From: Psammoneis japonica
Lineage: Eukaryota
Assembly: GCA_008632985.1 (NCBI GenBank)
Contig: QPGO01000274.1
Coordinates: 1 to 53,858 of the forward strand
Direction of reading: 5' to 3'
Length of the DNA: 53,858 bases
Shown here: positions 1-35,479 of the stretch, piece after piece
Numbering within the stretch: position 1 is the first letter of the stretch
How the letters are laid out: each line of letters begins with the position of its first letter
The notes under the pieces: model-generated
Told to the model about the DNA's origin: nothing
Databases searched by the model: none
The model's input: the letters and a program-made list of their open reading frames with translations, nothing else
Program-made: the position numbers and the translations under genes

Positions 1-69
1 TTCAATGACTTGTTTCAACATTTCAGCGGACTGGCTGTCAAAAACAAAATTCGTGAACAACATCATCAG

Positions 70-1951: not shown

Positions 1952-2058
1952 CTCTTGTTGCCCTGGTGAGAAATGGAGATGGCGTCGTCTCTATTTTGCA
2001 CAACACGCTGTGTCAGACAGACATCCTCACGCCGGTGCATGATCGGTGCGGGCACGTG

Positions 2059-6060: not shown

Positions 6061-6146
6061 AATTTGTTGGCTGGCATTCATCATTTCCAATTAATTTCTT
6101 TCGCTGACACCCCTGTTGTTCCTTTCGTTTTCATCAATTGATTCTC

Positions 6147-8377: not shown

Positions 8378-9095
8378 ATGGCGTGGTCTCGGCAAGCGCT
8401 TTGGGGTCTCGTCGATTGCATTGAAAGATCATCAACGTCTGGCTTGGCATTTTACAATTCAGCTCTCATTTTTTCCCTGGTTGCCGCCAATGGAAATCTT
8501 TTTTTTTTTCCGTCACCCCAGATTGACACGGAAGCCTGTCAATTCCTTGTTTTTTCCATTCGGATGTCATTGAATTGTCCATTTGACCACCGCGACTTTG
8601 TGCAATGCTCCAAGCTAAATTGGTGCGGGACCGCACCGATTTCTCCATGGAGTGGAAATGACACCATCCATGTCCGCATGGTTTATTTCCAAATTGGCTG
8701 CCCCGCCTTCTTCTCCAGCTCCAACCCTGCTTTCTTCTCCGGCTCCAAGCAATGACGGTGCTCTGCAGCACAGATTTCGCTTTTGTCAAACCAGTGCGTC
8801 ACACGTCTCCTCGATCCCACTTTTTGCGATGGATTCACTGCGTCACTGTTTTTTTCACTTGAAGTTGTAAGATGCCCCTTGTCTTGTTGAAGCCGGAAGA
8901 CATTGCATTTTCGAGGGAACCTGTTTGTCATTTTTCCACCATCCTGTCACACTTCTCACAATTTCCAAACTTTGGCTGTTCACAACACAACGGATTCGCC
9001 GCATGTCTTTTCTCACGGACACTGACCCCTCTTGGAAGAGGGAACTCAGTGAAGTTTCTGAGTTGTTTTGTGAGTTGACAGCAAATCAAACCACC

Positions 9096-10040
9096 ATGAG
9101 GCCCGGCTTCATGAAAACCGCACTTCTCGAAAGCGACGAGGTTGTTGAGGAAGGCGAGATTTGTGAAACAATGAAAGACCTCATGGGTCTTGGAACAAAG
9201 TCATCATGGGCCTCGGTGGAACACAAGTCCAAATGCTCCGACGATGACACAAAGCAGATCTCACTCAGGTCTCCTTGTCAATTTGCACTGCGCACCAACT
9301 GACCAAACATGCTTTGAACACAGGGGAGGTTCTGTTTGGCTCTTTGTTTGGACAGATTCATTTGCATCTTGTCAAATTTGTTTTCCCAGCGGTGCTTTTT
9401 TGGGAAGGTGAGATTTTTTGTTGTGCACCACGTTTTTCATTTCCTTGCAGGTGATCCTGACTTCTTTTTTGCACCCCCTCATTCAGATGGAAAACATCGC
9501 TGGTCCAAAGCATCACGTCCGTTGATGCGGGATTTCCAAGACAGTGTGGTGTCCACCATGGATGGCAGTTCTCAGTGCATCTGCCTCAAGTGCGCTCCTG
9601 AGGTCATGGGTCTTTGGAACATTTACAAGACTGTGGCCGCAAATGGCACGGCGCACACGTTGACTGGAGGTCCTCTGCCACGTCCGACTTTTTGTTGTCC
9701 TTGGTTGGAAATCCTTGTTCACTGCTTCAACAGCGCACATCCGAATCTGTGCAACATCTTTGTCTGCGTCACCCAGCATGCTGAATCTCAAGATTCATCC
9801 GAAGATTCATCCGTGGCCAGTGTCTCCAAAAAAAGGAAAGCCACCAGTGACGAGGTGGTGTCCGACTTGTTGTTTTACAAAAAGGACATGGTGGAGGAAA
9901 CTTGCCATGAGTGTGTCTCATTGGCGATGGAGTTTGATCTTTCTGACCGCAACATTCTCGGAAGCCGCTCTTCTGACAAGAACGTCTGTCACTTCTGTCT
10001 TTTCAGCGACTCTGACTCTGAAGATGACTCCGCCGCTTGA
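9096..10040 (+). pseudogene. Hypothetical protein gene, probable intron near 9408-9450
   Basis: ATG at 9096 (MRPGFMKT...), in-frame TGA at 9300, GTGAGA...TTGCAG intron-like segment, acidic C-terminus. Confidence 0.4.
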
Positions 10041-11421: not shown

Positions 11422-12479
11422 TCCCTTTTCATTCCTGTGATGGAAACAAGCACACACTGAGTGAGTGACAGACAGACCTCCAAGCAAAGAAGGCTGTCGC
11501 TCGCCCCACCGCTGTTGCGGCCCGCCCTTGTCCTCTTCCTTCTTGGGAGTGCTGCACTCAGCACAAGCAGAAGACATTGGCTGTCTCTCACCTTGCCCCC
11601 TCTTTGATGCTTGGCGTTGTGGTGTCATCTTTGCGGAGTGCCTCTTTTTTCTTCTGGTGCCTTCATTTCCCCTTTCCATTTTCCCCCTTTCATGCGGTGG
11701 GCAGTCCAACAGTTCACAATGCAAGATTCAAGCCACACATCTTTGTCAATGGAAGGGTCCCACAGGTGCAAATGACTCTTCTTAAAAGTTGGCTTTTCAT
11801 CCTTTGGCCGTGGCTGTTGTCCTTGTTTGTCTGGCAAATCAAACAAAAACATCATTGGGGGTGGAAAATGACTCCGATGCTTCACCTTTGTCAACAGGGA
11901 TGCATTTGCTTGCTGGAGCCCATGACCCTGCCGGCGGCTCTTTTGGGGATGGAAGCTCTTCAGGAAACAAGGAGGGCTGGGGTGATGAGGCGCCCATGGC
12001 AAACAGAAAAGACAGATGCTGCTGACAGTGCCGCTGCTGCTGCTGATTGTGTGCCGACAGCAGAAGACAAAGCAGAAGGCAGAGAGACACCACGTGCCAG
12101 AAGTTCACACTGCACGCATGCAGACCCTGCCTGCACAGGCTGTTCAAAAAAGTCACCTCTGTTGTGCTGTCATGGCTTGTCCCAACCAGGTCAGAAAGGA
12201 GCACATTCATGGAAGCCAAACACCAAGAAGCCTTCAAGCCTTCAAGCAGACAGCAGACAGTGCTGCAGACCCTGCTGGCATGAAATGCAGGACTGGGCGG
12301 CGAGGAGCTAGAGAGAGTGGAGAGCAGGGAGGGTCTCACAAGTTCTGTGTTAATTTGTTTTCACTCAGGAGCTTTTAATCATCACAAATGCAGCCTCCAA
12401 ATTGTGACCATGACACTAAAACAATTTGCAGAACTGCATTGAAGAATGGGACGACGTCCCCAGAGATGAGCTGGGGACA

Positions 12480-15400
12480 TTAAGATGCACACTCCTCCAA
12501 CTTTCTCTTGGTCCCTCTTTCTTGTGCAGGTTCTTTCTTTTGAACCAAATGGGGCTTGTTTGTCAAGAGCCAAAAAACAAAGCTCGCGTTGCTGTGGCGA
12601 CCCGCCAACACACGCGGCCACAGCGAATCGGGCCTTTTGTCTTTGCTGAGCCGCAACAAGTGACGTCCAGCCTTGTTCATTTGGCAAAAGCAATCCATCA
12701 CCCGTTGAGTCTCCCCAATCGGCATTGTGACGCGTTTCAAAGAGTGCGAGGCTTCTCCAATTTCTTCAGGTGTGATTTCCAGCTGAGGGTTTCCCCACAA
12801 ATTAAGTTTTTCAAGATTGGGCAGCGCCAAAACCTCTCGCGGAATTCCAGTCAATTGTGTGCAATTAGAGAGATCCAACGATTTCAATCTTTTGAGCAAC
12901 CCCATCGCAGGAGGCAACTCAACAAGGCCATTGCAACAGGCCAAGCCCAGTGACTCAAGACCCACAAGCTGGGAAACGCTCTCTGGCAACTCAGTGAGGG
13001 ATCGACACCCTGTCAAACTGAGCCTTTTCAAACTTGAAAGTTGGAAGAGCTCATCTGGCAACTCAGCAAGTTCTGTGCACCCCTCGACAACCAACTCTTC
13101 AAGTTTTGCAAGTCATCCAATCTCTCAGGCAAGGTGACAAGACGCAGAGAACCATCTTTGGAAGCAACCGTCAACTCTTTTAGGTTGGTCAACTGTCCAA
13201 TCTCTGGAGGCAATCGCTCAAGACGATGGCAGTGGATCAGCGTCAATGTCTTGAGGTTTGCAAGTTGTCCAACTTCGCCAGGCATGGCAACAAGACTCTC
13301 AGCATTGAAGATGGTCAACTCAATCAAGCTTCTCAATCCTCCAATCTCAGCAGGCAAGGCCACAAGACTCTCACTCCCGAAATCCTCAACTTGGTCAAGC
13401 TTCTCAACTGTCCAATCTCAGCAGGCAAGGTGACGAGACTGATGCTTTCAACAACCAGCACTTTGAGGTTAGACAGCTGTCCAATCTCTGGAGGCAACTG
13501 CACGAGAATCTCGCAACCCCGCAATTTGAGCGTCTCAAGGTTTGCAAGTTGTCCAATCTCAGCAGGCAAGGTGACGAGACTCCAACTTTCAACAACCAGC
13601 TCTTTGAGATTAGACAGCTGTCCAATCTCTGGAGGCAACTGCATGAAACCGTGGCAACCCTCCAATTCGATCGTCTCAAGGTTTGCAAGCTGTCCAATCT
13701 CAGCAGGCAAGGTGACGAGACTAAAACTTGCAACAAACAGCACTTTGAGGTTAGACAGCTGTCCAATCTCTGGAGGCAATTGCACAGACTCTTGCAATGC
13801 CTCAATTTGAGCGTCTCAAGGTTTGCAAGCTGTCCAATCTCAGCAGGCAAGGACAGAAGACGCTCATTTGTGGAAACTTCTAAGGTTGTCAAGCTTCTCA
13901 ACTGTCCAGTCTCTGGAGGCAACTGCTCAAGACGCGAACATCTTCGAAGGTGCAGTGCTTTGAGATTGGACAGCTCTCCGATCTCTTGAGGCAACTGCTC
14001 AAGATGCAAACTTTCAACAAACAGCAGACGCGTTCCAGCCCCAGGTGGGACTCCGTGTGACATTGGGCCCGTAGAATTCTGCGTGCGAGCTCCGTAGTGC
14101 GAGAATTTAATTGATGAATGTGTTTGTCTTCAACATCAAATGAACGACCAAGTTTGTGGTGCAATTATGCCTCTCACCACTCGACGTTTTTGCAATTGCA
14201 CCTGCCCTGCGCGATTCTTAAGACAGCATAGAATCGCACTGTGACAAAAAATGTCAAAAGTTTTTGGATGGATCGCTCAATGAGTGCACCGTAAAATGAC
14301 ACAAAATGTCAAAAAATCACGTAGAATTCTACGTGCGCGACATGCGACGAGATTCAAAAAACTGTCGATGTCACAGTTCAGCAGCACGAGGTCCCACCCA
14401 GACCTGGAACGCGTCAGCACTTTGAGATTAGACAGCTGCCCAATCTCTTGAGGCAACTGCATGAAACCGTGGCAACCCTCCAATTTGATGGTCTCAAGGT
14501 TTGCAAGTTGTCCAATCTCAGCAGGCAAGGTGACGAGACTCCAACTTTCAACAACCAGCTCTTTGAGGTTAGACAGCTGTCCAATCTCTGGAGGCAACTT
14601 GCCAAGATTGTCGCAACCCTCCAATTTGATCGTCTCAAGGTTTGCAAGTTGCTCAACTTCACCAGGCAAGGCCTGGAGCCAATGGCCACGGAAAACTTCT
14701 AAGGTCGTCAAGCTTCTCAACTGTCCAATCTCTGGAGGCAACTGCTCAAGACGCAAACATGCTCGAAGGTGCAGCACTTTGAGATTGGACAGCCGTCCAA
14801 TCTCTGGAGGCAATTGCTGAAGACGGATGCAGTTGAGCAGCGTCAACGTCTCAAGGTTTGCAAGTTGTCCAATCTCAGCAGGCAAGGTGATGAGACTCCA
14901 ACTTTCAACAACCAGCTCTTTGAGGTTAGACAGCTGTCCAATCTCTGGAGGCAACTTGCCAAGATTGTCGCAACCCTCCAATTTGATCGTCTCAAGGTTT
15001 GCAAGTTGCCCAACTTCACCAGGCAAGGCCTGGAGCCAATGGCCACAGAAAACTTCTAAGGTCGTCAAGCTTCTCAACTGTCCAATCTCTGGAGGCAACT
15101 GCTCAAGACGCGAACATGCTCGAAGGTGCAGCACTTTGAGATTGGACAGCCGTCCAATCTCTGGAGGCAATTGCTGAAGATGGATGCAGTTGAGCAGCGT
15201 CAACGTCTCAAGGTTTGCAAGTTGTCCAACCTCAGCAGGCAAGGTGACGAGACTCAAACTTTCAACAACCAGCTCTTTGAGATTAGACAGCTGTCCAATC
15301 TCTGGAGGCAACTGCTCGAGACGGAGCAATTTGAGTGTGACCAGCCAGTGCATCATGACAATTTCAGATGGCAATGTTCTCAAACAACCTGGAGGAATTG

Positions 15401-15539
15401 CCGTGCAGGAGGCGTTGACGAATCCTTCGCATCCTGGCTCAATTGTGACATGCTGGGAAGACGCCAACTGCTCCACAGACTGTCCTGTGGCTCGAGCCAA
15501 TGCAGCAAGGATTTGTGCAGACTGCTGTTTAGCATCCAT
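12480..15539 (-). pseudogene. Leucine-rich-repeat protein LRR-A, copy 1 (MITE insertion, frameshifts)
   Basis: Many LPxEIGQLxNLxxL repeats. C-terminal MNKAGRHLL...LWPRVLA...FVFWLL domain. Split into ORFs 14277.., 13404.., 13333.., 13028.., 12480... Confidence 0.92.
14027..14415 (+). mobile_element. MITE family A, copy 2 (389 bp), inside LRR-A
   Basis: Termini gacgcgttccag...ctggaacgcgtc; TSD AGCA. Excision restores the LKVLFVESL reading frame. Confidence 0.95.
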
Positions 15540-16122
15540 CTCTTTGTTCTTCAGATGCAAGGATCCGACACAAAGCGATGGACGTCAGGGTTGATGCGGA
15601 TGACAGCGTGTTGGCAAATGGCGGTTGCTGCCATTGTGGTTGCAGAGGAGCGAGGAGTGGGGGAGGATGGATGTGTGCTGTGCCCCCTCACGCACATGTG
15701 CAAATTCATCTCCGAATGGCAGTTCACAGCGTGGGTGTGCCCCGGGGCCATGCCTGCACGACATGCATGCGCGACTGCAACAGCACAGAAAGCACAGCAA
15801 CTGTGCGTTGCAAGGTGTGTCCCCTCACATGTGCAAATTCATCTCTGCATGGCAGTTTGTGACGTGGCTCAGTGTGCCCCGGGGCCGTGCCCGCACGACA
15901 TGGCATGTGGGCACACGCGACTGCTGCTGCATGCACAAATCCATCTCCAACTTGCACTGCTGCAACAAGCACTGCTGTGACAAGCACTGCTGCAACAAGC
16001 ACATCACATCATTTCACCGCCTTTTTGTTGTTCTGTTGACAAGGAGGGAGTTGCTTCGACCCTCGTTTGGCTTTGCGCCTGCCTGTGTGGCACGTTCCAA
16101 AAGAAGAGCACCATCACGCACC

Positions 16123-17301
16123 ATGGAGGATGGCAAAGCGCTGCATGGCCTCAGCACATTGGCTCGAGCAGTGGGGCTGTCTGAGGAGGCTTTGATGGAG
16201 CGCAAACAAATTTTCCCAATCTTGAGTGAAGATCGTTGGGCGAGAATGAGAGAATCACCACCTGAAACAGGCTTGCTGCACCGACTGACTACACTGGACT
16301 TGTCATCCTGCCGGCATCTTGAGCAATTGCCGCCACAGATTGGACGGTTGACCGGCCTCAAAGTGTTGCGCCTTGTTTGTTGCACGAGTCTTGTTGATTT
16401 ACCTGATGAGATTGGACAGTTGCGGAGCTTGGCGGAGTTGCATTTGTGTGGGTGCACAGAGCTAAAACGACTGCCGCATGGAGTTTTGCACCTTACAAAC
16501 CTGGGGGAGCTGGAGATCAAACACTGCACAGAAGTCACTGAGTTGCCAGATGAACTCTTCTGACTGCCAAATTTGAAATGCTTGCAGTTGGAACATTGTG
16601 ATTCCCTCACTGCGTTGCCAGCGAGAGTTTCCCAGCTGACAAGTCTCGAATCGTTGCACGTGTCACTTTGTGGCAAAATGTCAGAAATTCCTGTTGAGAT
16701 TGGCCACCTCTCCAACTTGCAAACGCTTGAGCTGCGCGGATGCAGAGGCTTGAATGATTTCCTTCAAAATGGCACAAGCGGCATGGTGAACCTGACTGGA
16801 CTGGATTTGAGTGACAATGCTGACATCATTGAGTTGCCTGTTGCAATCGGGTCACTTGAATCTTTGAAAGAGTTGTGTTTGATGGGTCGCACGCAATTGA
16901 CTCGCACTCCAAAAGAGGTTCTGGGGCTTCCAAATCTCACAGATCTTAATTTGTGGGCATGTCGTGAGCTGAAGACAACACCGGAAGAAATTGGAGAGGC
17001 TTCGCATTCTTTGAAGCACATGGAAATGCCGACCGAGGAGACTCAAGCGAAGATGGATTGCTTTTGTCAAATGAACAAGGCTGGACGTCACTTGTTGCGT
17101 TGCAAAAGAGGCGCACCCGCTGCCATTTGGCCAAATGTGTTGGCGGGTCCTTCCAGTGATGAAAACTTTGTTTTTTGGTTCTTGACGCACAAACCTCACT
17201 TTGTCCAGAAGCACCAGGGAAAAAGAGGAACCAAGAGAGCTGTCGAGGAGCAGGACAGCACAGTGCGGCAGGACGTTCGTCAACAGATTGCTCAGCCATG
17301 A
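16123..17301 (+). pseudogene. Leucine-rich-repeat protein LRR-B, copy 1 (premature TGA at 16561)
   Basis: LRR repeats plus the same C-terminal domain as LRR-A. TGA here corresponds to CGA at 23982 in copy 2. Confidence 0.92.
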
Positions 17302-17326
17302 AGCTCAGACTGCGCAGCAAAGATTG

Positions 17327-17547
17327 TCGTCCTCAATGTCTGCCATTGGGACGACACAAACCTGGCAGAGCTCCGTTCTTGTCTCTGCTCTAGAGTGCCC
17401 TTTCCTTTCAAATTCATCTGGTTGAAAATGCTGCAGTCATCCTCAATGTCTGCCATTGGGATGACACAAACCTGGCAGAGCTCCGTTCTTGTCTCTGCTC
17501 TAGAGTGCCCTTTCCTTTCAAATTTATCTGGTTGAAAATGCTGTAGT
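17327..17547. repeat. Tandem duplication, period 110 bp (also at 24748-24968)
   Basis: cctcaatgtctgccattggga...ggttgaaaatgctg at 17331 and 17441. Confidence 0.95.
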
Positions 17548-17763
17548 TGGCTTGACACTCGCAGCAGGCCCCTCTGCCTCGTCAGCCAGCCAGCGGGTGG
17601 CAGAGAGTGCCATGCTGCACTGTAGAGCTAGCTTAGAGCAGGCAGCAGTCTCTTAAGGGCAGTGGGGAGCACAGTGCTGCACTGTCCCCTGCCATGAATC
17701 TAAAGATGCTCGCGATGGATCCGTTGCAGTGGTGTCCCAATTAAACACATTAAAGCATTTTTT

Positions 17764-19190
17764 CTAATGGGAGTCTTTCGACAGTCTTTCGAGACGGTCA
17801 ATGATGCCTTTTCCAGGAGAAAATTCCTGGCCGACCATCGCTTGAACCTTTTGGACCAGCGCCCTTTCCGCAGCAACAGAGAAAGTCCCACATTTAAAGG
17901 TGAGCTCTTTGTGGCATTCGCAGGAGCAACCCCTGCAGCCGCTGCACATTGCACAGTGACAGTCCTCGCACTTTTTCATGCATCCAACTTCCTTTCTTGC
18001 TGTGAAATGACCTGTGTGATTGATGGAGCTGATTTCACAAATCACAAAATCATCCATCTGTTTGAAGACCTTGTGCAAGCCTTCGGCACAACAGGTTGTG
18101 CCAATGTTAAAATCCTTGCTCAACAACTTGTTGCACCCGTTGCACTGCACGCACACATTCGACAACTCCTTGCTGCAAATCTTGCAAGAGCAATCGTCGC
18201 CGCATGGGTCGATCCTCAGAGTGGCCGAGTCTGGCAGCTCAGCAATGGTCACAGCATCAGGCAGCTCTGGCAGCTCTGCAATCGATGCAGCATTGGCACC
18301 CTTCTTCTTCCTCTTCCTCTTGTTTGTCTTTGCCATCTCCTCAAGTTTGGCACGTTCCTCCGCTAGAGAATCATGCTGCTCCTTTGACCCCTTTGCTGTC
18401 TCCTTGAACTCAACATGTTCTTCCACAATGTGGCTGAGCAAAGGAAGGATTCCCTTCAGAATGGTGTCAGTGGAGGGAAAAGCATTTGCTTCCAATCCGC
18501 GTGACATGCCAGCAGTGGGCGGCAGCCAAGAGCCATCCACAACTGGCTCGCAGGTGCATCTCTGTGCCATCCTGAGAAGGCACAGCTCCGGAATGCCTGG
18601 GATCTTCTTGCCAGCTTTGAGACCAGCTGGATGTTCGTGATCAGCTTCAGCTTCATGTTTCAACTCTGTGTGCAACTCTGCACATTCGAGCATTGTCACC
18701 GTTTCACGGGTGATGCCTTTGATGGACACACCACGGTGCATCCAGTCCCAAGCCACTGAGACACAAACTTCCGTGGCAGTGACATCACCACCCATCTTGT
18801 TCACTGCTTTTTCACGGAGGTTGGCATGGCAGTCCGAATCATGCAGTTTTGATGGCGCCATCTTCCAAAAAGCATGCATCCTGCCCTTGTTGATGTGAAG
18901 GAACTGTCCAGGTTCCAGAGCAAAAACAGACGGACAGCACCTGTTGTGACCGTGCGAAACAAAACAGTGATGGGAAACGAAAGTCGGAGAATGTGCAAGA
19001 TTCAGACGACGCAACTTGCCCCAGTTGCTTCATCTCCTTGATTGTCTGACCAGTTGGCCAATTCAGGTTCTTGCGGTTCTCCTCATGAGGGAGGCCGTGC
19101 ACAGCGTCGCAGTCCTTGTCACTGCCGTTGAGAAGGTCCACAGCCTTTTTTTTTGAATTTTTCCGGCAGTCGTCGCAACATCACGACTTC
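17764..19190 (-). pseudogene. 5'-truncated duplicate of the JmjC gene
   Basis: Matches 25185-26610 but is cut at the duplication junction, so it lacks the HxD motif. Confidence 0.88.
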
Positions 19191-19897
19191 TTAAAAGCTG
19201 GCTTTTCATCCTTTGTCCGTGGCTGTTGTCCTTGTTTGTCTGGCAAATCAAACAAAAACATCATTGAGGGCGGAAAATGACTCCGATGCTTCACCTTTGT
19301 CGACAGGGACGCATTTGCTTGCTGGAGCCCATGACCCTGCCGGTGGCTCTTTTGGGGATGGAAGCTCTTCAGGAAACAAGGAGGGCTGGGGTGATGAGGC
19401 GCCCATGGCAAACAGAAAAGACAGATGCTGCTGACAGTGCCGCTGCTGCTGCTGATTGTGTGCCGACAGCAGAAGACAAAGCAGAAGGCAGAGAGACACC
19501 ACGCGCCAGAAGTTCACACTGCGCGCATGCAGACCCTGCCTGCACAGGCTGTTCAAAAAAGTCACCTCTGTTGTGCTGTCATGGCTTGTCCCAACCAGGT
19601 CAGAAAGGAGCACATTCATGGAAGCCAAACACCAAGAAGCCTTCAAGCCTTCAAGCAGACAGCAGACAGTGCTGCAGACCCTGCTGGCATGAAATGCAGG
19701 ACTGGGCGGCGAGGAGCTAGAGAGAGTGGAGAGCAGGGAGGGTCTCACAATCTCACAAGTTCTGTGTTAATTTGTTTTCACTCAGGAGCTTTTAATCATC
19801 ACAAATGCAGCCTCCAAATTGTGACCATGACACTAAAAACAATTTGCAGAACTGCATTGAAGAATGGGACGACGTCCCCAGAGATGAGCTGGGGACA

Positions 19898-22800
19898 TTA
19901 AGATGCACACTCCTCCAACTTTCTCTTGGTCCCTCTTTCTTGTGCAGGTTCTTTGTTTTGAACCAAATGGGGCTTGTTTGTCAAGAGCCAAAAAACAAAG
20001 CTCGCGTTGCTGTGGCGACCCGCCAACACACGCGGCCACAGCGAATCGGGCCTTTTGTCTTTGCTGAGCCGCAACAAGTGACGTCCAGCCTTGTTCATTC
20101 GGCAAAAGCAATCCATCACCCGTTGAGTCTCCCCAATCGGCATTGTGACGCGTTTCAAAGAGTGTGAGGCTTCTCCAATTTCTTCAGGTGTGATTTCCAG
20201 CTGAGGGTTTCCCCGCAAATTAAGTTTTTCAAGATTGGGCAGCGCCAAAACCTCTCGCGGAATTCCAGTCAATTGTGTGCAATTAGAGAGATCCAATGAT
20301 TTCAATCTTTTGAGCAACCCCATCGCAGGAGGCAACTCAACAAGGCCATTGCAACAGGCCAAGCCCAGTGACTCAAGACCCGCAAGCTGGGAAACGCTCT
20401 CTGGCAACTCAGTGAGGGATCGACACCCTGTCAAACTGAGCCTTTTCAAACTTGAAAGTTGGAAGAGCTCATCTGGCAACTCAGCAAGTTCTGTGCACCC
20501 CTCGACAACCAACTCTTCAAGTTTTGCAAGTCATCCAATCTCTCAAGGCAAGGTGACAAGACGCAGAGAACCATCTTTGGAAGCAACCGTCAACTCTTTT
20601 AGGTTGGTCAACTGTCCAATCTCTGGAGGCAATCGCTCAAGACGATGGCAGTGGATCAGCGTCAATGTCTTGAGGTTTGCAAGTTGTCCAACTTCACCGG
20701 GCATGGCAACAAGACTCTCAGCATTGAAGATGGTCAACTCAATCAAGCTTCTCAATCCTCCAATCTCAGCAGGCAAGGCCACAAGACTCTCACTCCCAGA
20801 AATCCTCAACTTGGTCAAGCTTCTCAACTGTCCAATCTCAGCAGGCAAGGTGATGAGACTGATGCTTTCAACAACCAGCACTTTGAGGTCAGACAGCTGT
20901 CCAATCTCTGGAGGCAACTGCACGAGAATCTCGCAACCCCACAATTTGAGCGTCTCAAGGTTTGCAAGTTGTCCAATCTCAGCAGGCAAGGTGACGAGAC
21001 TCCAGCTTTCAACAACCAGCTCTTTGAGATTAGACAGCTGTCCAATCTCTGGAGGCAACTGCATGAAACCGTGGCAACCCTCCAATTCGATCGTCTCAAG
21101 GTTTGCAAGCTGTCCAATCTCAGCAGGCAAGGTGACGAGACTAAAACTTGCAACAAACAGCACTTTGAGGTTAGACAGCTGTCCAATCTCTGGAGGCAAT
21201 TGCACAAGACTCTTGCAATGCCTCAATTTGAGCATCTCAAGGTTTGCAAGCTGTCCAATCTCAGCAGGCAAGGACAGAAGACGCTCATTTGTGGAAACTT
21301 CTAAGGTTGTCAAGCTTCTCAACTGTCCAGTCTCTGGAGGCAACTGCTCAAGACGCGAACATCTTCGAAGGTGCAGTGCTTTGAGATTGGACAGCTCTCC
21401 GATCTCTTGAGGCAACTGCTCAAGATGCAAACTTTCAACAAACAGCAGACGCGTTCCAGCCCCAGGTGGGACTCCGTGTGACATTGGGCCCGTAGAATTC
21501 TGCGTGCGAGCTCCGTAGTGCGAGAATTTAATTGATGAATGTGTTTGTCTTCAACATCAAATGAACGACCAAGTTTGTGGTGCAATTATGCCTCTCACCA
21601 CTCGACGTTTTTGCAATTGCACCTGCCCTGCGCGATTCTTAAGACAGCATAGAATCGCGCTGTGACAAAAAATGTCAAAAGTTTTTGGACGGATCGCTCA
21701 ATGAGTGCACCGTAAAATGACACAAAATGTCAAAAAATCACGTAGAATTCTACGTGCGCGACATGCGACAAGATTCAAAAAACTGTCGATGTCACAGTTC
21801 AGCAGCACGAGGTCCCACCCAGACCTGGAACGCGTCAGCACTTTGAGATTAGACAGCTGCCCAATCTCTTGAGGCAACTGCATGAAACCGTGACAACCCT
21901 CCAATTTGATGGTCTCAAGGTTTGCAAGTTGTCCAATCTCAGCAGGCAAGGTGACGAGACTCCAACTTTCAACAACCAGCTCTTTGAGGTTAGACAGCTG
22001 TCCAATCTCTGGAGGCAACTTGCCAAGATTGTCGCAACCCTCCAATTTGATCGTCTCAAGGTTTGCAAGTTGCTCAACTTCACCAGGCAAGGCCTGGAGC
22101 CAATGGCCACGGAAAACTTCTAAGGTCGTCAAGCTTCTCAACTGTCCAATCTCTGGAGGCAACTGCTCAAGACGCAAACATGCTCGAAGGTGCAGCACTT
22201 TGAGATTGGACAGCCGTCCAATCTCTGGAGGCAATTGCTGAAGACGGATGCAGTTGAGCAGCGTCAACGTCTCAAGGTTTGCAAGTTGTCCAATCTCAGC
22301 AGGCAAGGTGACGAGACTCCAACTTTCAACAACCAGCTCTTTGAGGTTAGACAGCTGTCCAATCTCTGGAGGCAACTTGCCAAGATTGTCGCAACCCTCC
22401 AATTTGATCGTCTCAAGGTTTGCAAGTTGCCCAACTTCACCAGGCAAGGCCTGGAGCCAATGGCCACGGAAAACTTCTAAGGTCGTCAAGCTTCTCAACT
22501 GTCCAATCTCTGGAGGCAACTGCTCAAGACGCGAACATGCTCGAAGGTGCAGCACTTTGAGATTGGACAGCCGTCCAATCTCTGGAGGCAATTGCTGAAG
22601 ATGGATGCAGTTGAGCAGCGTCAACGTCTCAAGGTTTGCAAGTTGTCCAACCTCAGCAGGCAAGGTGACGAGACTCAAACTTTCAACAACCAGCTCTTTG
22701 AGATTAGACAGCTGTCCAATCTCTGGAGGCAACTGCTCGAGACAGAGCAATTTGAGTGTGACCAGCCAGTGCATCATGACAATTTCAGATGGCAATGTTC

Positions 22801-22960
22801 TCAAACAACCTGGAGGAATTGCCGTGCAGGAGGCGTTGACGAATCCTTCGCATCCTGGCTCAATTGTGACATGCTGGGAAGACGCCAACTGCTCCACAGA
22901 CTGTCCTGTGGCTCGAGCCAATGCAGCAAGGATTTGTGCAGACTGCTGTTTAGCGTCCAT
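19898..22960 (-). pseudogene. LRR-A, copy 2 (MITE insertion, in-frame TGA stops near 20531-20545)
   Basis: ORFs 21698..22981, 20543..21484 and 19898..20512 form one LRR frame once the MITE is removed and two TGAs are read through. Confidence 0.92.
21448..21836 (+). mobile_element. MITE family A, copy 3 (duplicate of copy 2)
   Basis: Same TIRs and AGCA TSD at the homologous site, so the insertion predates the 7.4-kb duplication. Confidence 0.95.
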
Positions 22961-23543
22961 CTCTTTGTTCTTCAGATGCAAGGATCCGACACAAAGCGAT
23001 GGACGTCAGGGTTGATGCGGATGACAGCGTGTTGGCAAATGGCGGTTGCTGCCATTGTGGTTGCAGAGGAGCGAGGAGTGGGGGAGGATGGATGTGTGCT
23101 GTGCCCCCTCACGCACATGTGCAAATTCATCTCCGAATGGCAGTTCACAGCGTGGGTGTGCCCCGGGGCCATGCCTGCACGACATGCATGCGCGACTGCA
23201 ACAGCACAGAAAGCACAGCAACTGTGCGTTGCGAGGTGTGTCCCCTCACATGTGCAAATTCATCTCTGCATGGCAGTTTGTGACGTGGCTCAGTGTGCCC
23301 CGGGGCCGTGCCCACACGACATGGCATGTGGGCACACGCGACTGCTGCTGCATGCGCAAATCCATCTCCAACTTGCACTGCTGCAACAAGCACTGCTGTG
23401 ACAAGCACTGCTGCAACAAGCACATCACATCATTTCACCGCCTTTTTGTTGTTCTGTTGACAAGGAGGGAGTTGCTTCGACCCTCATTTGGCTTTGCGCC
23501 TGCCTGTGTGGCACGTTCCAAAAGAAGAGCACCATCACGCACC

Positions 23544-24722
23544 ATGGAGGATGGCAAAGCGCTGCATGGCCTCAGCACATTGGCTCGAGCAGTGGGACTG
23601 TCTGAGGAGGCTTTGATGGAGCGCAAACAAATTTTCCCAATCTTGAGTGAAGATCGTTGGGCGAGAATGAGAGAATCACCACCTGAAACAGGCTTGCTGC
23701 ACCGACTGACTACACTGGACTTGTCATCCTGCCGGCATCTTGAGCGATTGCCGCCACAGATTGGACGGTTGACCGGCCTCAAAGTGTTGCGCCTTGTTTG
23801 TTGCACGAGTCTTGTTGATTTACCTGATGAGATTGGACAGTTGCGGAGCTTGGCGGAGTTGCATTTGTGTGGGTGCACAGAGCTAAAACGACTGCCGCAT
23901 GGAGTTTTGCACCTTACAAACCTGGGGGAGCTGGAGATCAAACACTGCACAGAAGTCACTGAGTTGCCAGATGAACTCTTCCGACTGCCAAATTTGAAAT
24001 GCTTGCAGTTGGAACATTGTGATTCCCTCACTGCGTTGCCAGCGAGAGTTTCCCAGCTGACAAGTCTCGAGTCGTTGCACGTGTCACTTTGTGGCAAAAT
24101 GTCAGAAATTCCTGTTGAGATTGGCCACCTCTCCAACTTGCAAACGCTTGAGCTGCGCGGATGCAGAGGCTTGAATGATTTCCTTCAAAATGGCACAAGC
24201 GGCATGGTGAACCTGACTGGACTGGATTTGAGTGACAATGCTGACATCATTGAGTTGCCTGTTGCAATCGGGTCACTTGAATCTTTGAAAGAGTTGTGTT
24301 TGATGGGTTGCACGCGATTGACTCGCACTCCAAAAGAGGTTCTGGGGCTTCCAAATCTCACAGATCTTAATTTGTGGGCATGTCGTGAGCTGAAGACAAC
24401 ACCGGAAGAAATTGGAGAGGCTTCGCATTCTTTGAAGCACATGGAAATGCCGACCGAGGAGACTCAAGCAAAGATGGATTGCTTTTGTCAAATGAACAAG
24501 GCTGGACGTCACTTGTTGTGTTGCAAAAGAGGCGCACCCGCTGCCATTTGGCCAAATGTGTTGGCGGGTCCTTCCAGTGATGAAAACTTTGTTTTTTGGT
24601 TCTTGACGCACAAACCTCACTTTGTCCAGAAGCACCAGGGAAAAAGAGGAACCAAGAGAGCTGTCGAGGAGCAGGACAGCACAGTGCGGCAGGACGTTCG
24701 TCAACAGATTGCTCAGCCATGA
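23544..24722 (+). CDS. LRR-B, copy 2; open frame of 392 aa with no Tyr, function doubtful
   Basis: Uninterrupted from MEDGKAL to QIAQP*. LRR repeats and MNKAGRHLL C-terminal domain. Confidence 0.75.
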   Translation: MEDGKALHGLSTLARAVGLSEEALMERKQIFPILSEDRWARMRESPPETGLLHRLTTLDLSSCRHLERLPPQIGRLTGLKVLRLVCCTSLVDLPDEIGQLRSLAELHLCGCTELKRLPHGVLHLTNLGELEIKHCTEVTELPDELFRLPNLKCLQLEHCDSLTALPARVSQLTSLESLHVSLCGKMSEIPVEIGHLSNLQTLELRGCRGLNDFLQNGTSGMVNLTGLDLSDNADIIELPVAIGSLESLKELCLMGCTRLTRTPKEVLGLPNLTDLNLWACRELKTTPEEIGEASHSLKHMEMPTEETQAKMDCFCQMNKAGRHLLCCKRGAPAAIWPNVLAGPSSDENFVFWFLTHKPHFVQKHQGKRGTKRAVEEQDSTVRQDVRQQIAQP

Positions 24723-25184
24723 AGCTCAGACTGCGCAGCAAAGATTGTCGTCCTCAATGTCTGCCATTGGGACGACACAAACCTGGCAGAGCTCCGTTCT
24801 TGTCTCTGCTCTAGAGTGCCCTTTCCTTTCAAATTCATCTGGTTGAAAATGCTGCAGTCATCCTCAATGTCTGCCATTAGGATGACACAAACCTGGCAGA
24901 GCTCCGTTCTTGTCTCTGCTCTAGAGTGCCCTTTCCTTTCAAATTTATCTGGTTGAAAATGCTGCAGTTGGCTTGACACTCGCAGCAGGCCCCTCTGCCT
25001 CGTCAGCCAGCCAGCGGGTGGCAGAGAGTGCCATGCTGCACTGTAGAGCTAGCTTAGAGCAGGCAGCAGTCTCTTAAGGGCAGTGGGGAGCACAGTGCTG
25101 CACTGTCCCCTGCCATGAATCTAAAGATGCTCGCGATGGATCCGTTGCAGTGGTGTCCCAATTAAACACATTAAAGCATTTTTT

Positions 25185-28100
25185 CTAATGGGAGTCTTTC
25201 GACAGTCTTTCGAGACGGTCAATGATGCCTTTTCCAGGAGAAAATTCCTGGCCGACCATCGCTTGAACCTTTTGGACCAGCGCCCTTTCCGCAGCAACAG
25301 AGAAAGTCCCACATTTAAAGGTGAGCTCTTTGTGGCATTCGCAGGAGCAACCCCTGCAGCCGCTGCACATTGCACAGTGACAGTCCTCGCACTTTTTCAT
25401 GCATCCAACTTCCTTTCTTGCTGTGAAATGACCTGTGTGATTGATGGAGCTGATTTCACAAATCACAAAATCATCCATCTGTTTGAAGACCTTGTGCAAG
25501 CCTTCGGCACAACAGGTTGTGCAAATGTTAAAATCCTTGCTCAACAACTTGTTGCACCCGTTGCACTGCACGCACACATTCGACAACTCCTTGCTGCAAA
25601 TCTTGCAAGAGTGGTCGTCACCGCATGGGTCGATCCTCAGAGTGGCCGAGTCTGGCAGCTCAGCAATGGTCACAGCATCAGGCAGCTCTGGCAGCTCTGC
25701 AATCGATGCAGCATTGGCACCCTTCTTCTTCCTCTTCCTCTTGTTTGTCTTTGCCATCTCCTCAAGTTTGGCACATTCCTCCGCTAGAGAATCATGCTGC
25801 TCCTTTGACCCCTTTGCTGTCTCCTTGAACTCAACATGTTCTTCCACAATGTGGCTGAGCAAAGGAAGGATTCCCTTCAGAATGGTGTCAGTGGAGGGAA
25901 AAGCATTTGCTTCCAATCTGTGTGACATGCCAGCAGTGGGCGGTCGCCAAGAGCCATCCACAACTGGCTCGCAGGTGCATCTCTGTGCCGTCCTGAGAAG
26001 GCACAGCTCCGGAACACCTGGGATCTTCTCGCCAGCTTTGAGACTGGCTGGATGTTCGTGATCAGCTTCAGCTTCGCGTTTCAACTCTGTGTGCAACTCT
26101 GCACATTCGAGCATTGTCACCGTTTCACGGGTGATGCCTTTGATGGACACACCACGGTGCATCCAGTCCCAAGCCACTGAGACACAAACTTCCGTGGCAG
26201 TGACATCACCACCCATCTTGTTCACTGCTTTTTCACGGAGGTTGGCATGGCAGTCCGAATCATGCAGTTTTGATGGCGCCATCTTCCAAAAAGCATGCAT
26301 CCTGCCCTTGTTGATGTGAAGGAACTGTCCAGGTTCCAGAGCAAAAACAGACGGACAGCACCTGTTGTGACCGTGCGAAACAAAACAGTGATGGGAAACG
26401 AAAGTCGGAGAATGTGCAAGATTCAGACGACGCAACTTGCCCCAGTTGCTTCAACTCCTTGATTGTCTGACTAGTTGGCCAATTCAGGTTCTTGCGGTTC
26501 TCCTCATGAGGGAGGCCGTGCACAGCGTCGTAGTCCTTGTCACTGCCGTTGAGAAGGTCCACAGCCTTTTTTTTGAATTTTTCCGGCAGTCGTCGCAACA
26601 TCACGACTTCATTGTAACCTGCGATGCAAAGGTGTCCCGAGTCTACGGTGCCATGGCCGTCTTGGTGAAACCCAGTGAAAGATGGTGGTGTGGTGACGCA
26701 CAAATTGGGGCCCATGAAAGGACGCGCTTCAGGATTGATCTGCACACTCGTTGAAAGCAAGGAGGAAACCGGTGCATGAGATGCAAGCACTTTGTCTAGC
26801 GGGATGCAATTTGTGGCACTGCAACACTTGCCGCGATCATCAGGCAGTGCTTTCCTCCCGGAAAGAATTCCATGAGCTTCAAAGAGGATGTCAAGTCCTC
26901 GCACAACTCCAGCAGCACCTTCTTGACATTGACATCATGCATGTGCAAGACCGTCTTCATTGGATCAATTTTTTGCTTCTTGTTTGTTGCGTCAACAAAC
27001 TCGAACTCATTGCTCCCAGATGTGCCATTCATCCCACCGAGACGCTCATTGAGACAACGGATGCAATCTGCAATCGTCATGGAAACAAGCTCAGGATGTT
27101 CCTCACATTCCACCGAATCCTTTTTTGCTGTGTGTGTTTTAATCTCAAAGTGGCAATGATCCGACGTTTGATGCGCCACACATTGGGGATGCCACACTCA
27201 TGGCCTCAGGTGACCAGCAAAACCTTGGGTTACAACTGAAATGTCGTCACGTTCCATCATGTGCAAGAGAAACCTCTCGTCCTCCCCGCGAATCACAGGA
27301 TCATCCATCTTGTCCATGCGGAAGTTGCCAAGGAGAACCCGGGAGTCTTCATCCCAAGTCCAAATGCAAAGACCCGTGTTGGGTAAATTTGGGACATCTG
27401 GAGGATCAGGCATCCGGCTGCCTGGCAACTCATCATCCTTTGGCAGCTCGAGCTCTTCTGGGCTTGCTTTTTTCCGTTTCGCACCTCCTTTTTTGTTGTT
27501 GGAGTTTCGGTTCATGAGGCCGTGCGTGCATCCACGGTTGTTGATGGCGTTCTTCATGTGACTTTTAAATGCCCTCTCCCCGATGCACAGTATGAAACAG
27601 AAAGCATCCTGACAAATTTTGACTTTGGTTCCTGGCAGCACAAAATCATGCGTGGGACCCAAAACGGAAAAGAGAGGCATTCCGGCTTGGGGAGGCATTG
27701 GCAGTGCGGGTTGTGCGGCTTGCTTTGTCAACTTGACCATCTCGTCATGCTTGTCTTTTCCTGTCTTCGGAATGCATCCAACAAGGAAGCCGGCACAAGC
27801 TTTTGCATTTTCCATTCCCTCAGAAGGATCAAATGCTTTTTTGAGGCAGCAGCATGACGAACTGGATTCTTTGTCATTCCTCCCTTCGGCCCACCTCTTG
27901 CATGCATCAAAACCGGCATCCTTTGTCAGAAACTGGCACAAACTGTCGGCGGCAGCATCGATGGCTTGCGGAGTTGCGCTTTTCTTCTTCTTCAAAGTTT
28001 CCTTCAATTTCTCAAAAACCAAGCTGCGCTTCTTCACCTCGTTCAACTTCTTCACCTCTCTCGGCTCGCCAACATCACTGGCAGCGTTGGCGACCTCCGC

Positions 28101-28256
28101 GGTGCTCTCATCCGGCATGGTCATCTCATTCTCATTGGACTCATCACTCGTCAGTGTCCTCCGTCCAGTTGCCACGTTTGGGGTGTGATGAGGCGCGACC
28201 TCCATCATGGTCACTGCCTCACCCAACTCATCACTCATCGGTGTCCCACCCATCAT
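25185..28256 (-). pseudogene. JmjC-domain protein with Cys-rich N- and C-terminal zinc-binding regions
   Basis: PFMGPNL.VT..SFTGFHQDGHGTVDSGH (HxD), LEPGQFLHINKGRMHAF (distal H), VSVAWDW, C-terminal CxxC clusters. Introns at 26740-26831 and 26362-26440 join exons in frame. In-frame TGA at 27198-27200. Confidence 0.82.
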
Positions 28257-28301
28257 GCAATCGACTCGTCTTTGGGATTTTGTTTGTGCTGGTGCAGCAG
28301 C

Positions 28302-28528
28302 AAAAGTTGAAATGACGGATGCCGAAAAGTCAAACATCTGGTCCATGACGTCGTTGTTGAAGTGCACAAGGAAATGCCGTGTCATTTTTTGGGCCTTGCA
28401 ACGCAGTGCTGCTTCCACACAAAAGTTAAAATGACGCACGCCGAAAAGTTAAACATCTGGTCTATGACGTCATTGTTGAAGTGCACGAGGAAATGCCGTG
28501 TTGCATTTTTGGGCCGTGCAACTCAGCT
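28302..28528. repeat. Diverged ~120-bp tandem duplication upstream of JmjC
   Basis: aaaagttRaaatgacg...gccgaaaagtYaaacatctggtcYatgacgtc...aggaaatgccgtgt occurs twice. Confidence 0.85.
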
Positions 28529-32413: not shown

Positions 32414-32804
32414 TCCACGCATTCCAGGTCTAGGTGGGACCTCGTACACTGAACTGTGACATCGACAGTTTTTTGAATCGCCTCGTATGTCGCGCACGTA
32501 CATTTCTACGTGATTTTGGCGAAATTTTGCATGATTTTACAGTGCAATTGTCAGGCTGTCCATTGAACAACTTTTGATGTTTTTTTCTTCTACGCCATTC
32601 TCGAGTGTCTTAAGAATGGCGTGGGGGCAGGCGTGTCATCCAAAACTGCGAGTGCCAACATGGACAGATGCACTGCAAACTTGGCCGTTTTTTTTGTGTC
32701 GAAGACAAACACATCCATCAACCAGAGCACGAACTGCAGAGCTCGCACGTAGAATTCTACGGGGCAAATGTCACAAAAAGTCCCACCCAGGACTGGAACC
32801 CGTC
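32414..32804 (-). mobile_element. MITE family A, copy 4 (reverse orientation, more diverged)
   Basis: Reverse complement of family A; TSD TCCA (32410-32413, 32805-32808). Excision gives in-frame GAA ATC CAG TTG. Confidence 0.88.
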
Positions 32805-35479
32805 TCCAGTTGAGCAGAGGCGGAGGCCGTCCACACCAAAACTTTCAGCTGCCAAAGATCAAGGAGGCTCGTCCAGTTTCAATTCAAAGACTTGCAAGGT
32901 CAATTGGCCCACCTGGAGAAGCTTGGTCCCACCTCACTGCGGCTGAATCTGTCAAATGGGCATTTGGACAAGGGTTGGCAGGGTTCCGTGTTCATTTTTC
33001 AGACAAAAGAAAGCTCCCCATGTTTGTTGGAGTCCCACACATTCAGGGGACATTGTTGCAAGAGGGTGAATCTCACCCTTTGGACCAGGTCCTTCCATTG
33101 CACAACATGAAGAACAAGAAGCAGCGAAAAAACACATGGAACTCCCCAATGTCAGCCATCTTCCAGCCCCAACCACACAAGAGTCCTCCTTCTAAAAGTT
33201 GCAGTGAAGATGCCACACATGGGTCTGGCGGCTCAGGCACAAGAGCTGGTTCAGACAAAATCAGCAGCCGGGATTCGGTCGATGCCTTCACACCCACATC
33301 GCAAGTCCTCAATTTACAAAACCAAGAAATGCTGGCAGCCAACGCATGAAAGGCTGCCATTTGCTTGTACAAACCTGAACCAGATCATGAGTCCTGTGTG
33401 AAATTTCTTGGTGTCTTTGTTTGTGGTGGAGTCAACCATGCGGAGCTGACTGAAGAGGAAAAAACAGATCTCAGGAACGTTTGTGAGGACACCAAATACA
33501 TCGTCTGTACAAGTTTTGCGGATGAAGTTGTTTTTAAGCTTAGCCTCAAGCGCATTCCCATTCCGCAAGGACTCCGGGCTGAGCACATGCATGTTGATGG
33601 GAGGGTTCCAGCACAGTCAGTTCTGAGCCGCACAGTTCCCAAAACAGAATTTGAAGAGGCGCGGTCACCTGGCAGCCAGCACCATGTCACAGGGCCATCC
33701 ATTGTGCAACAAACATTGGAAGAAACAAACTGGGCGGAGCACACTGCAGCATGGGATGGGCCTGTCCCAAGACTTTGGGGCATGCACACAAAAGATGATG
33801 ATGGGTTGTCTGATGCGGACAATGTGTCAGATGTGGCAAAGAAACCAAATGAAGTGGCAAAAGTGACAATCAATGACACCGTCCAGCATGTGCCACTTGC
33901 CGCAGTTGCAGCCAAGGCAAGGATGGCTGGCCACGGAACAAATGAGAGTGATGGGGCGCCCAGAGTTTTGGGACCTGAATTTGCAACATTGGGAGCTGCG
34001 CTGCGTGTTTGCCCCACAGGACACCCTGTGCGAATGAAGAATGTCACTCCAAACCGGTTTAAAAGGGCAAACATGGCTGAACGCGAGGGCGCCAGTTTGA
34101 AAACTCTCCGAGAAGAGCATGATGTGGTGTGGGCAAAGAAAAACCCAGAGAAAGTCGCAGACTTGCTGCGTTCTGCTGTCGCAAATCAATTGATTGCCAA
34201 CCCAAAGACTTGGGAAGATTTTGCTGTTAAGATTGGCAAAGAAGATCATCCATGCAAAGCGGAGCCCCTTGATGAAAGCTTTTGGGCGATGATGAAGCTC
34301 AGTCCCGACCAGATGGAAAAGATGTGTGACTTTCTCAGGACCGAGCTGGGTGAGCGGAACCTGAAGGTGTCATCATTTTTCTCGGGTCAGTGCAAAACAG
34401 ACACAACCGATCTCAATCAAGTTCAAAGGATTTTGAAGGAACTCCATGGCAAGCTGGTCGTTCTTGTTAAAAAAGTGTTGTTTCAAACTGAAGAGGACAA
34501 AATGCGGGCTGAAGTTCAATCGGGTTTAGCTCAATCACTCAGGAGCATCACTGGCACTGGAAATGCAGATTCCAAGACAGACAAAATGTTGTTCCTAGCG
34601 GCTGGTGCACTCCAAGACTTTGAGATTGTTTGCAAGCATGTGTTTGGGACCCCAAACAAACGGAGCCAGGTTTGTGGAACAGGCAGTCGGCAGGCAATGG
34701 ATTGGGTGTCCTTGTCTCTGCCAAAAACCCCAAATGGAGACAAACCGTCCTACTCTGAGATGCTGTTGCTGATGTTGGAGGGGCTTGAGACAGAGGCATG
34801 GCGTTCCCAGATTCTCCGAAATGCCATGGATTTGATTGTTGTGGACGGCAAGCTGGTTGACAGGGAGACAGGGGAGCCATTGAGTGCGACAGACGCCGAG
34901 CAAATTTGTTGTGATGTTTGCTGCAGGCTCATGTCATGGACTTTTTCCAGCCGCAACAGTCAATTTCCAAAAGGGTGGAACAGGTGTTCTCATCCCGTTT
35001 TGTCTTTAACCGAATGTCTCCCTGCATCCGAAACTGACAGGCAGTTGGCAGTGAAAAAGGTGCAGGAGTTTCTTGACATGGATGACAGGAAGCCACCAAG
35101 TGACCCCTTCCTGATTCAAACTGAAGTGGACCACTCAGATGCGTTCGACTCAGACGATGACGTCAAACGCAATGCAAGAAATGAAAGGGAGAGGCAAAAT
35201 GAAACCCTGTCTGAAGAAGAGTCTGAGCCAGAATCTGAGCCAGAATCTGAACCAGAGGCTGTGCCCAATGGCAAAAAAAGAACATCGAGAATGAAGCAAA
35301 CAACCAAGAGACCACAAAAAAGCTGCAAGAGAACATCCTAAAGAGGCAACACACAGTTTCCGCCAAGAGACAACGGCGGCAAGAAGCTGCAGCCGCACCA
35401 CATGAAGAGCTTAGACAGAGCGCAAGATTGAGCAATGCCACCCACAGAACTCATTCCCATGACTCTGATGATTCCTCCT

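Follow-up and report, generated by a model that had tools for sequence, protein, structure and literature searches.

Decay of CpG results from deamination of 5-methylcytosine, and in fungal repeat-induced point mutation (RIP) the changes are mostly from CpA to TpA, enriching TpA. Hypermutation of genomic DNA from TpA to CpA or TpG has been reported only recently, and its mechanism is unexplained. In mutation-accumulation lines of Bigelowiella natans, 231 of 302 new substitutions were located in two integrated viral regions, all of them on TpA and yielding TpG or CpA (Mettrop et al., 10.64898/2026.01.13.699255). According to that preprint, the activity was found in some lines only, at a rate ~1000-fold over that of the rest of the genome. 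The B. natans genome was described as carrying 124 clusters poor in TpA and rich in CpA and TpG, with an observed/expected dinucleotide ratio (o/e) of 0.45 for TpA in a region of nucleocytoplasmic large DNA virus (NCLDV) type. An ADAT2-like adenine deaminase was proposed by its authors; deaminase defences (ADAR, APOBEC, ADAT2/3) were discussed, A>G with a 5′ T neighbour being an ADAR/ADAT-like preference, and fungal RIP was named as a comparison of opposite direction, C>T (10.64898/2026.01.13.699255). In our literature search this preprint was the only report found of TpA>CpA/TpG erosion. Here, a stretch of DNA from Psammoneis japonica was compared with these systems (NCBI GenBank assembly GCA_008632985.1, contig QPGO01000274.1, positions 1 to 53,858 of the forward strand). 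This whole stretch, referred to as the window, comprises 53,858 bases at ~50% G+C with a single run of 651 N, and contains two adjacent units, A and B, sharing leucine-rich repeat (LRR) genes and the 3′ part of a gene referred to as JmjC-like. With a probability of roughly 0.7, the window is regarded as TpA-stripped nuclear DNA holding a 7.4-kb tandem duplication in which TpA loss and CpG decay are ongoing, a TpA-targeted mutator being the presumed agent.

TpA depletion and the spectrum of differences between the units

Over the whole window, o/e was 0.091 for TA (296 TA in total), 1.57 for CA, 1.55 for TG and 0.60 for CG, and the remaining A/T dinucleotides were not depleted (AA 1.27, TT 1.32, AT 0.84). 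This 11-fold depletion, with ~90% of TpA gone and CpA enriched, was uniform, TA o/e lying between 0.03 and 0.16 in all 2-kb bins. Among 80 metagenomic loci encoding relatives of the JmjC-like gene, none had a TA o/e below 0.3 (minimum 0.43, median 0.66). Measured against the medians of these relatives, the window is short of 1866 TA and 758 CG and has a CA+TG surplus of 2250, a fair mass balance. CA and TG are equally enriched and strand asymmetry is absent outside the repeated LRR motif, so the process hits both strands alike. Stop triplets were counted as 122 TAA, 98 TAG and 1163 TGA, and 160 stop-to-stop frames of at least 120 codons were obtained across the six frames. Owing to the near-absence of TAA and TAG, long frames stay open in all six frames, and the length of an open reading frame (ORF) is no evidence for a gene in this window.

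Public sequencing runs were also used; run X1 had a share of 0.61, and X2 and X3 were essentially empty. Over 18 kb, contigs from X1 (depth 50-130) departed from the window sequence at just ~90 places, most of them transitions, with no mass return of TA. Since these contigs are TA-poor as well, the depletion is present in the reads and not just in the assembly.

Unit A (11778..19190) and unit B (19187..26610) were delimited by self-BLAST and a mismatch table, together with indel contexts and ORF comparison for unit A and the junction for unit B, the right end of which continues into the rest of the JmjC-like gene. Identity by self-BLAST was 98.95% over 7425 columns, made up of 7412 aligned positions with 65 mismatches and 13 gap columns. 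The junction at 19187-19190 is gap-free and carries the microhomology CTTC. Unit A breaks off within an exon of the JmjC-like gene, and the gene is complete only past unit B. The arrangement has the look of a genuine tandem duplication of a 7.4-kb segment.

Following a proposal of an earlier reading of the same stretch from its letters (the sequence-only reading), the units were aligned, all 65 mismatches were classed by context and the TA sites were polarised. The main process parting copies A and B is CpG change, not TA change: 41 mismatches are transitions between CpG and TpG or CpA, against ~4 expected from background (P = 5e-27), spread across the unit from 11862 to 18656. This largest class was left out of the sequence-only reading, whose list of TA differences was to that extent selective. 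The other mismatches comprise five TA versus CA/TG single transitions, six in three adjacent CA-versus-TG doubles, eight other transitions and five transversions. Background was taken from these eight other transitions over ~3900 sites outside CpG, TA and the mutable positions of CA/TG, giving 0.205% per site pairwise. At this rate ~2.9 TA-creating differences (from 1426 CA/TG) and 0.23 TA-destroying differences (from ~55 TA) are expected. The TA singles are therefore unremarkable by themselves, and the direction of change decides. TA-variable sites were found at 7 of 20 candidate TA in 17400-19190 and at 1 of 36 elsewhere (Fisher P = 0.002, with bounds chosen post hoc), TA loss being concentrated within the unit's right-hand 1.8 kb, which suggests that the process is patchy.

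For CpG, 19 sites were compared with paralogues, CG being ancestral at 13, apparently derived at 5 and uninformative at 1. The apparent gains (CA/TG>CG, 5 of 18 polarised) could hint at a weaker A>G activity at CpA. CpG o/e was 0.74-0.85 in positions 1-10000, versus 0.44-0.61 across the duplicated units (12000-26000). CpG is far less depleted overall than TA, despite equally fast decay since the duplication; its hypermutability may be recent or repeat-specific.

Within the units, LRR ORFs were located at 12483-15584 (minus strand) and 15604-17298 (plus strand), with B copies at 19901-24719, and matched Pfam LRR_14, LRR_8, LRR_4 and others at E values down to 1e-43. Position 16561 of unit A carries a CpG>TpG change that converts CGA to the stop TGA in the plus-strand LRR ORF, copy B retaining a 565-amino-acid ORF. 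Relative to unit B, three 1-bp deletions (13126, 13378 and 13785) disrupt the minus-strand LRR ORF of unit A, and in the region of 18102 a Cys that is invariant in 30/30 homologues is Gly in copy A. With its truncated gene, nonsense change, deletions and lost invariant Cys, unit A appears to be a decaying copy.

Direction of change at TA sites

Sites were polarised with three kinds of outgroup: paralogous repeats in the window, protein homologues, and a third haplotype in the public reads. Homologues of the JmjC-like gene were collected by word search (84) and by full HMMER search (384), resulting in alignments A1 and A2. The four pairs of TA versus CA/TG cited in the sequence-only reading were all recovered at their places (19110 C/26531 T; 19051 C/26472 T; 13470 T/20890 C; 17458 G/24879 A), and at most of the sites it cited TA did not prove to be the derived state.

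Site 13470 (plus strand) reads GGTTAGA in A and, at 20890, GGTCAGA in B; with T present in 6/6 of the best paralogous LRR repeats (~90% identical), TA is the ancestral state and B has lost it. At 26531 (minus strand), B has the Tyr codon TAC (KDYDA) and A, at 19110, the Cys codon TGC (KDCDA). Here TA is ancestral and was lost in A, the homologue column (n = 25) containing Y 11 times, F 9, H 2, other residues 3 and C 0. The CA/TG double at 18191-18192 (B 25612-25613; minus strand) encodes Cys in A and His in B (DDCSC versus DDHSC), in a column with F in 15, Y in 13 and M in 2 of 30 homologues and R, H and C in none. Since Tyr (TAY) is the sole single-step ancestor of both Cys and His at this position, each copy lost this TA independently of the other.

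A second double, at 18624-18625 (B 26045-26046; plus strand), reads ACCAGC in A and ACTGGC in B. X1 contig 3 (18194-19109) has exactly 6 differences from the window; at 18624 it carries T in place of C with 18625 unchanged, giving ACTAGC, i.e. TA where A has CA and B has TG. TA is ancestral here and was lost in both copies. The contig is a mosaic, being A-like at 18199-18595 and B-like at 18609, 18655-6, 19033 and 19051. At the third double, 18594-18595 (B 26015-26016; minus strand), A encodes Gly-Ile and B Gly-Val (PGIP versus PGVP), and the homologue column (n = 30) has I in 22 and V in 5, a comparison weakly in favour of an ancestral TA. Both 18191-2 and 18594-5 had been picked out beforehand as sites with TG in one unit and CA in the other, a pattern expected from an ancestral TA but equally given by an ancestral CG; the TA origin holds at the first, with its Tyr, and has a weaker case at the second. 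Site 19051 (plus strand), with CA in A and TA in B (26472) and encoding Gly versus Ser, lies in a variable homologue column that gives no polarity; the X1 contig has the B state.

Counting 13470, 19110, 18191-2 twice and 18624-5 twice, at least six TA losses were polarised, against 0.23 expected (P = 1.5e-7; P = 2.5e-6 with a conservative background). Losses since the split number at most ~11. On these small counts, the comparison of sequences supports continued TpA erosion since the copies split. The same had been claimed in the sequence-only reading; it stands on the polarised losses, while two of the sites cited for it, 17458/24879 and 17544/24965, are ambiguous and lend it no support, and several others gave no polarity.

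The two ambiguous sites belong to a 110-bp tandem repeat of two units (17326..17547, plus strand; B copy 24747-24968), in which the copies differ at 17458/24879 (G versus A, ATTGGGA versus ATTAGGA) and at 17544/24965. Between the units one further CA/TA site was found, aaattcatc in unit 1 and aaatttatc in unit 2, to which no polarity was assigned; the previously noted pairs aattcatc/aatttatc and ctgcagt/ctgtagt are thus both present. A direct repeat of two copies with 87% identity (28301-28393 and 28420-28512, plus strand) shows three TA versus TG/CA differences, all with TA in the second copy and without assigned polarity. These differences had been noticed before, under a repeat length of 120 bp; the period is 119 bp.

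Majority-rule polarisation within repeat families of three to four copies gave an apparent 31 TA gains and 10 losses. It was rejected as biased, because under a hypermutable ancestral state the copy keeping TA is in the minority and because singletons of the outgroup copy carry no polarity. Many CA/TG alternations occur in the same families, so parallel loss is common; among three-copy sets, {CA,TA,TG} patterns were seen twice and {CA,CG,TG} once. Caution is due in TpA-eroding DNA, where parsimony against paralogues mis-polarises hypermutable sites.

The long-term direction was read from the JmjC-like gene, on the minus strand. Its last exon (25188..26361) lies inside a 421-amino-acid stop-to-stop ORF (25188-26450). 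A 79-nt intron (26362..26440) with GC donor GCAAGT and CAG acceptor is predicted from the sequence and from the continuity of the homologue alignment, and is preceded by an upstream exon (26441..26934; FHQDGHGTVDSGH). The truncated duplicate of the 3′ part of the gene in unit A (17767..19180, minus strand) was placed by homologue alignment. The 421-amino-acid ORF is without any Tyr, its conserved-Tyr columns being Cys, His, Cys and Cys, and the upstream exon has kept 1 of 3, the others being Cys and His. Over the seven columns with Tyr in at least half of the homologues, the window thus has Tyr in 1, Cys in 4 and His in 2; four of these columns are nearly invariant in the homologues (30/30, 24/25, 24/25 and 17/17). 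As judged from these alignments, the long-term direction is not in doubt and is TA loss. The GCAAGT donor would be a product of GTAAGT by TA>CA. Window-wide counts of GCAAGT (62), GTGAGT (11) and GTAAGT (1) were considered as a sign of donor erosion and no claim was made from them, GCAAGT belonging to the repeated LRR unit. Consequences of the TA loss are the replacement of Tyr by Cys or His, the predicted GC splice donor and the open frames on all six strands.

Expressed per dinucleotide and lineage, TA loss amounts to 0.055-0.10, CpG change to 0.075 and background to 0.002. As long-term averages within one region, TA loss since the duplication is 27-49 times and CpG change ~36 times the local background. 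TA gain is at most 0.001 per CA/TG (at most 3 gains in 2852 CA/TG copies), about the background rate. The ratio of gain to loss, 0.011-0.019, is of the order of 0.035, the TA/(CA+TG) actually observed, which places TA close to a very low mutational equilibrium. The young duplicate pair serves as an internal clock, by which the process is ongoing and not fossil and TA loss is on the scale of CpG decay.

Counted as 4-mers over the whole window, surviving TA occur as TTAA (69), TTAG+CTAA (70), CTAG (32), CTAC+GTAG (49), TTAC+GTAA (37), TTAT+ATAA (18), CTAT+ATAG (8), GTAT+ATAC (7), GTAC (6) and ATAT (0). RTAY sites seem to erode most quickly and YTAR sites most slowly, a bias that may reflect a wider motif of the mutator.

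Proposed mechanism and alternative explanations

Composition, the difference spectrum and the direction at polarised sites were observed directly. To account for them, a 7.4-kb segment with LRR genes and the 3′ part of the JmjC-like gene would have been tandemly duplicated in at least 54 kb of eukaryotic nuclear DNA, from which ~90% of TpA would have been removed by T:A>C:G transitions, TpA becoming CpA or TpG depending on the strand. Two processes would have acted since the split: CpG>TpG/CpA change, making up the 41 mismatches with the usual signature of 5-methylcytosine deamination, and continued TpA loss at a similar rate. By analogy, a TpA-targeted DNA mutator like that of B. natans is the candidate cause. 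The adenine of 5′-TpA-3′ may be deaminated on either strand and read as G, and the parallel CpG decay may reflect cytosine methylation of the region. TpA hypermutation may be an adenine-deaminase genome defence, with a direction opposite to that of fungal RIP.

Several observations weigh against this account. Counts are small and the background rate was derived from eight transitions; taken alone, the five TA singles are not above background (~3.2 expected, P(≥5) = 0.21). The adjacent 110-bp unit shows TG and CA, in both copies, at the counterparts of 17458/24879 and 17544/24965, so that by parsimony TA is derived. These two sites are ambiguous, TA gain and parallel loss being about equally likely, because the outgroup unit shares the same erosion, loss is ~50 times gain and an inter-unit CA/TA site is already present. 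The 5 of 18 polarised CpG sites that resemble CpG gains were judged from outgroups only 76-89% identical, in which parallel decay is likely, and the homologues used for protein polarisation are only 30-58% identical. X1 may be the sample behind the window assembly and would then lend no independent support to the composition. Contig 3 of X1 is either a third haplotype or else a recombinant or gene-converted copy, so that more than two versions of the locus are present among the sequenced DNA. Within 18191-18656 (466 bp, 3.6%) lie 17 of the 65 mismatches, including all three CA/TG doubles, versus ~0.7% elsewhere; this block may be an older or gene-converted tract, for which the timing would be 'after the sequences split' rather than 'after the duplication'. 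No viral hallmark was found in the window by the Pfam scan or by the IMG/VR scan for relatives of the JmjC-like gene. Since the duplication, TA has been lost at tens of times background, far below the ~1000-fold rate given in the B. natans preprint.

Of the alternatives, an origin of most TA events before the duplication is the one bearing on timing. The block 18191-18656 would then be a gene-conversion tract from an older paralogue, or the sole part that escaped homogenisation between A and B, as its density of mismatches, the clustering of TA-variable sites and the mosaic X1 haplotype would allow. Transitions belonging to none of the CpG, TA and double classes make up just 2 of its 17 differences (18193 and 18523), though, and more of them would be expected in an old tract; sites 13470, 19051 and 19110 lie outside it. 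We regard this origin as unlikely, and it would alter the timing only, being compatible with TA erosion as such. Two haplotypes or dispersed paralogues joined by the assembler could also pass for tandem copies, their differences being allelic or paralogous. The window is draft sequence containing a 651-N gap, an X1 contig mixes A-like and B-like states, 1174 of 1452 X1 contigs fit two places, and among the X1 contigs listed none was shown to bridge 19187-19190. Set against this are the gap-free junction with its CTTC microhomology, as for a true tandem duplication, and the end of copy A in mid-exon of a gene that continues only past copy B. Such a misjoin appears quite improbable, and even if it had occurred the polarised losses would remain evidence of erosion after divergence of the sequences.

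The spectrum itself could be explained without any TA-specific process since the duplication, if the TA differences were ordinary C>T/G>A gains and the doubles decayed ancestral CpG. The unremarkable number of singles, the two singles with TA derived by parsimony and the active CpG decay (41 sites), which also makes CA/TG doubles and leaves {CA,CG,TG} patterns in older repeats, are in line with it. It is largely refuted by the ancestral TA at 13470 and 26531, by Tyr or Phe in 28/30 homologues at 18191-2 with Arg in 0/30, by the third haplotype with TA at 18624-5 and by the excess of polarised losses, and is considered very improbable. Removal of TA by selection or by GC-biased gene conversion, in place of TpA-specific mutation, is hardly credible. 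Nothing specific speaks for it beyond the mild under-representation of TA in most genomes, including the relatives analysed here (median 0.66). The loss strikes conserved and invariant Tyr codons as well as a truncated gene copy, AA, TT and AT are not depleted as they would be by general GC-biased conversion, and CA and TG rise equally on both strands.

The reading of a tandem duplication with ongoing TpA loss and CpG decay can be extended to the proposal that a TpA mutator took a host-like region of at least 54 kb, without viral hallmark, to near-complete TpA loss and is still active in patches. This extension is tentative and on balance doubtful. If true, TpA mutators would not be confined to viral inserts and might work across the whole genome or in a second lineage; both Tyr codons and the stops TAA and TAG would be erased, the GTAAGT donor would be turned into GCAAGT, and the rate per site would equal that of CpG decay.

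Further elements and comparison with known systems

An element of ~390 bp is located within the LRR array of unit A (14026..14418, plus strand), with a B copy at 21448-21836 and others at 6147-6537 and 32417-32811 (inverted). Its word depth in X1 was 15,000-46,000, the flanking sequence having 50-130, and loose ends were seen at 14025, 14419 and 21448. It is less TA-eroded than its surroundings (7-8 TA per 300 bp). Between two direct copies, 7 TA singles, 9 CA/TG doubles, 4 CpG differences, 2 other transitions and 7 transversions were counted, most differences between copies falling at sites derived from TA. The element is a very high-copy repeat whose insertion into the LRR array preceded the A/B duplication, and such older repeats carry the same TA-loss signature as the A/B copies.

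For the JmjC-like gene, both exons gave 0 Pfam families at E ≤ 0.01. The JmjC Pfam model matched 0 of 27 alignment members, one of which matches Cupin_2 at 0.009, and a PDB sequence search with the JmjC-like profile gave 0 matches. The fold was tested on the homologue P0019, not on the spliced protein of the window, using an AlphaFold model with a mean predicted local distance difference test (pLDDT) of 67.6. Its top Foldseek matches were JMJD3, PHF2, PHF8, KDM7A and UTX, at E ~1e-6 and template modelling (TM) scores of only 0.25-0.30. The metal-binding HxD...H motif is intact in the window (FHQDGH...HINKGRMHAF). In the protein atlas all matches were <0.9 and serve as leads only; JmjC families dominate among them. 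On this model-based comparison the name 'JmjC-like' is fairly apt for the fold, not for family membership. No relative of the gene was found in the IMG/VR scan with the alignment, nor in a metagenome scan with the single protein.

Among the ORFs of the window, only LRR, PhyH and a weak Ulp1 match were obtained with Pfam, most long ORFs being without match. Four further ORFs gave 0 Pfam families. An ORF of 663 amino acids (33350-35338) was likewise unmatched in Pfam, and the 8000 candidates scored for it contained no homologue. A PhyH-like dioxygenase fragment was found at 40153-40782 (minus strand, E 4e-8). Two adjacent ORFs at 48047-48889 (plus strand) gave weak Ulp1 protease matches (E ~4e-4 and 9e-4) and are possibly a transposon remnant. 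A 177-bp tandem repeat of 4.2 copies lies at 41470-42208.

Compared with fungal RIP, the window shares context-specific transitions that wreck duplicated or foreign DNA and become visible as dinucleotide skews. Unlike in RIP, TpA is lost and CpA and TpG are gained, and no TpA excess was found, with at most three TA gains per 2852 CA/TG. Methylation-driven CpG decay is matched, as far as the sequence comparison goes, by the 41 of 65 differences, by ancestral CG at 13 of 18 sites and by the CpG o/e of 0.60; unlike in plain CpG decay, CpG is far less depleted than TpA at similar rates after the duplication. A likeness to deaminase editing may be seen in A>G with a 5′ T neighbour, the preference discussed in the preprint text; the substrate would be genomic DNA, with both strands affected equally.

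The closest resemblance is to B. natans as described in the preprint: TpA changes to TpG or CpA, the DNA is TpA-poor and CpA/TpG-rich, the effect is regional and patchy, and coding sequence is degraded. T:A>C:G change confined to TpA, as in that system, was found in the window with a TA o/e of 0.09, at least six polarised events and replacement of Tyr by Cys or His in 6 of 7 columns. Compared with the figures of the preprint, depletion is much deeper in the window (0.09 over at least 54 kb versus 0.45). As for episodic activity of the B. natans kind, the clustering of TA-variable sites is a possible hint. Unlike the viral inserts of B. natans, the window carries LRR, JmjC-like, PhyH and weak Ulp1 sequences, with no viral or transposon hallmark found. 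CpG decay runs alongside TpA loss in the window and is not described in the available preprint text. The locus is most suitably classed as a further case of the TpA hypermutation signature described recently, notable for its depth, its host-like genes and its rate relative to CpG.

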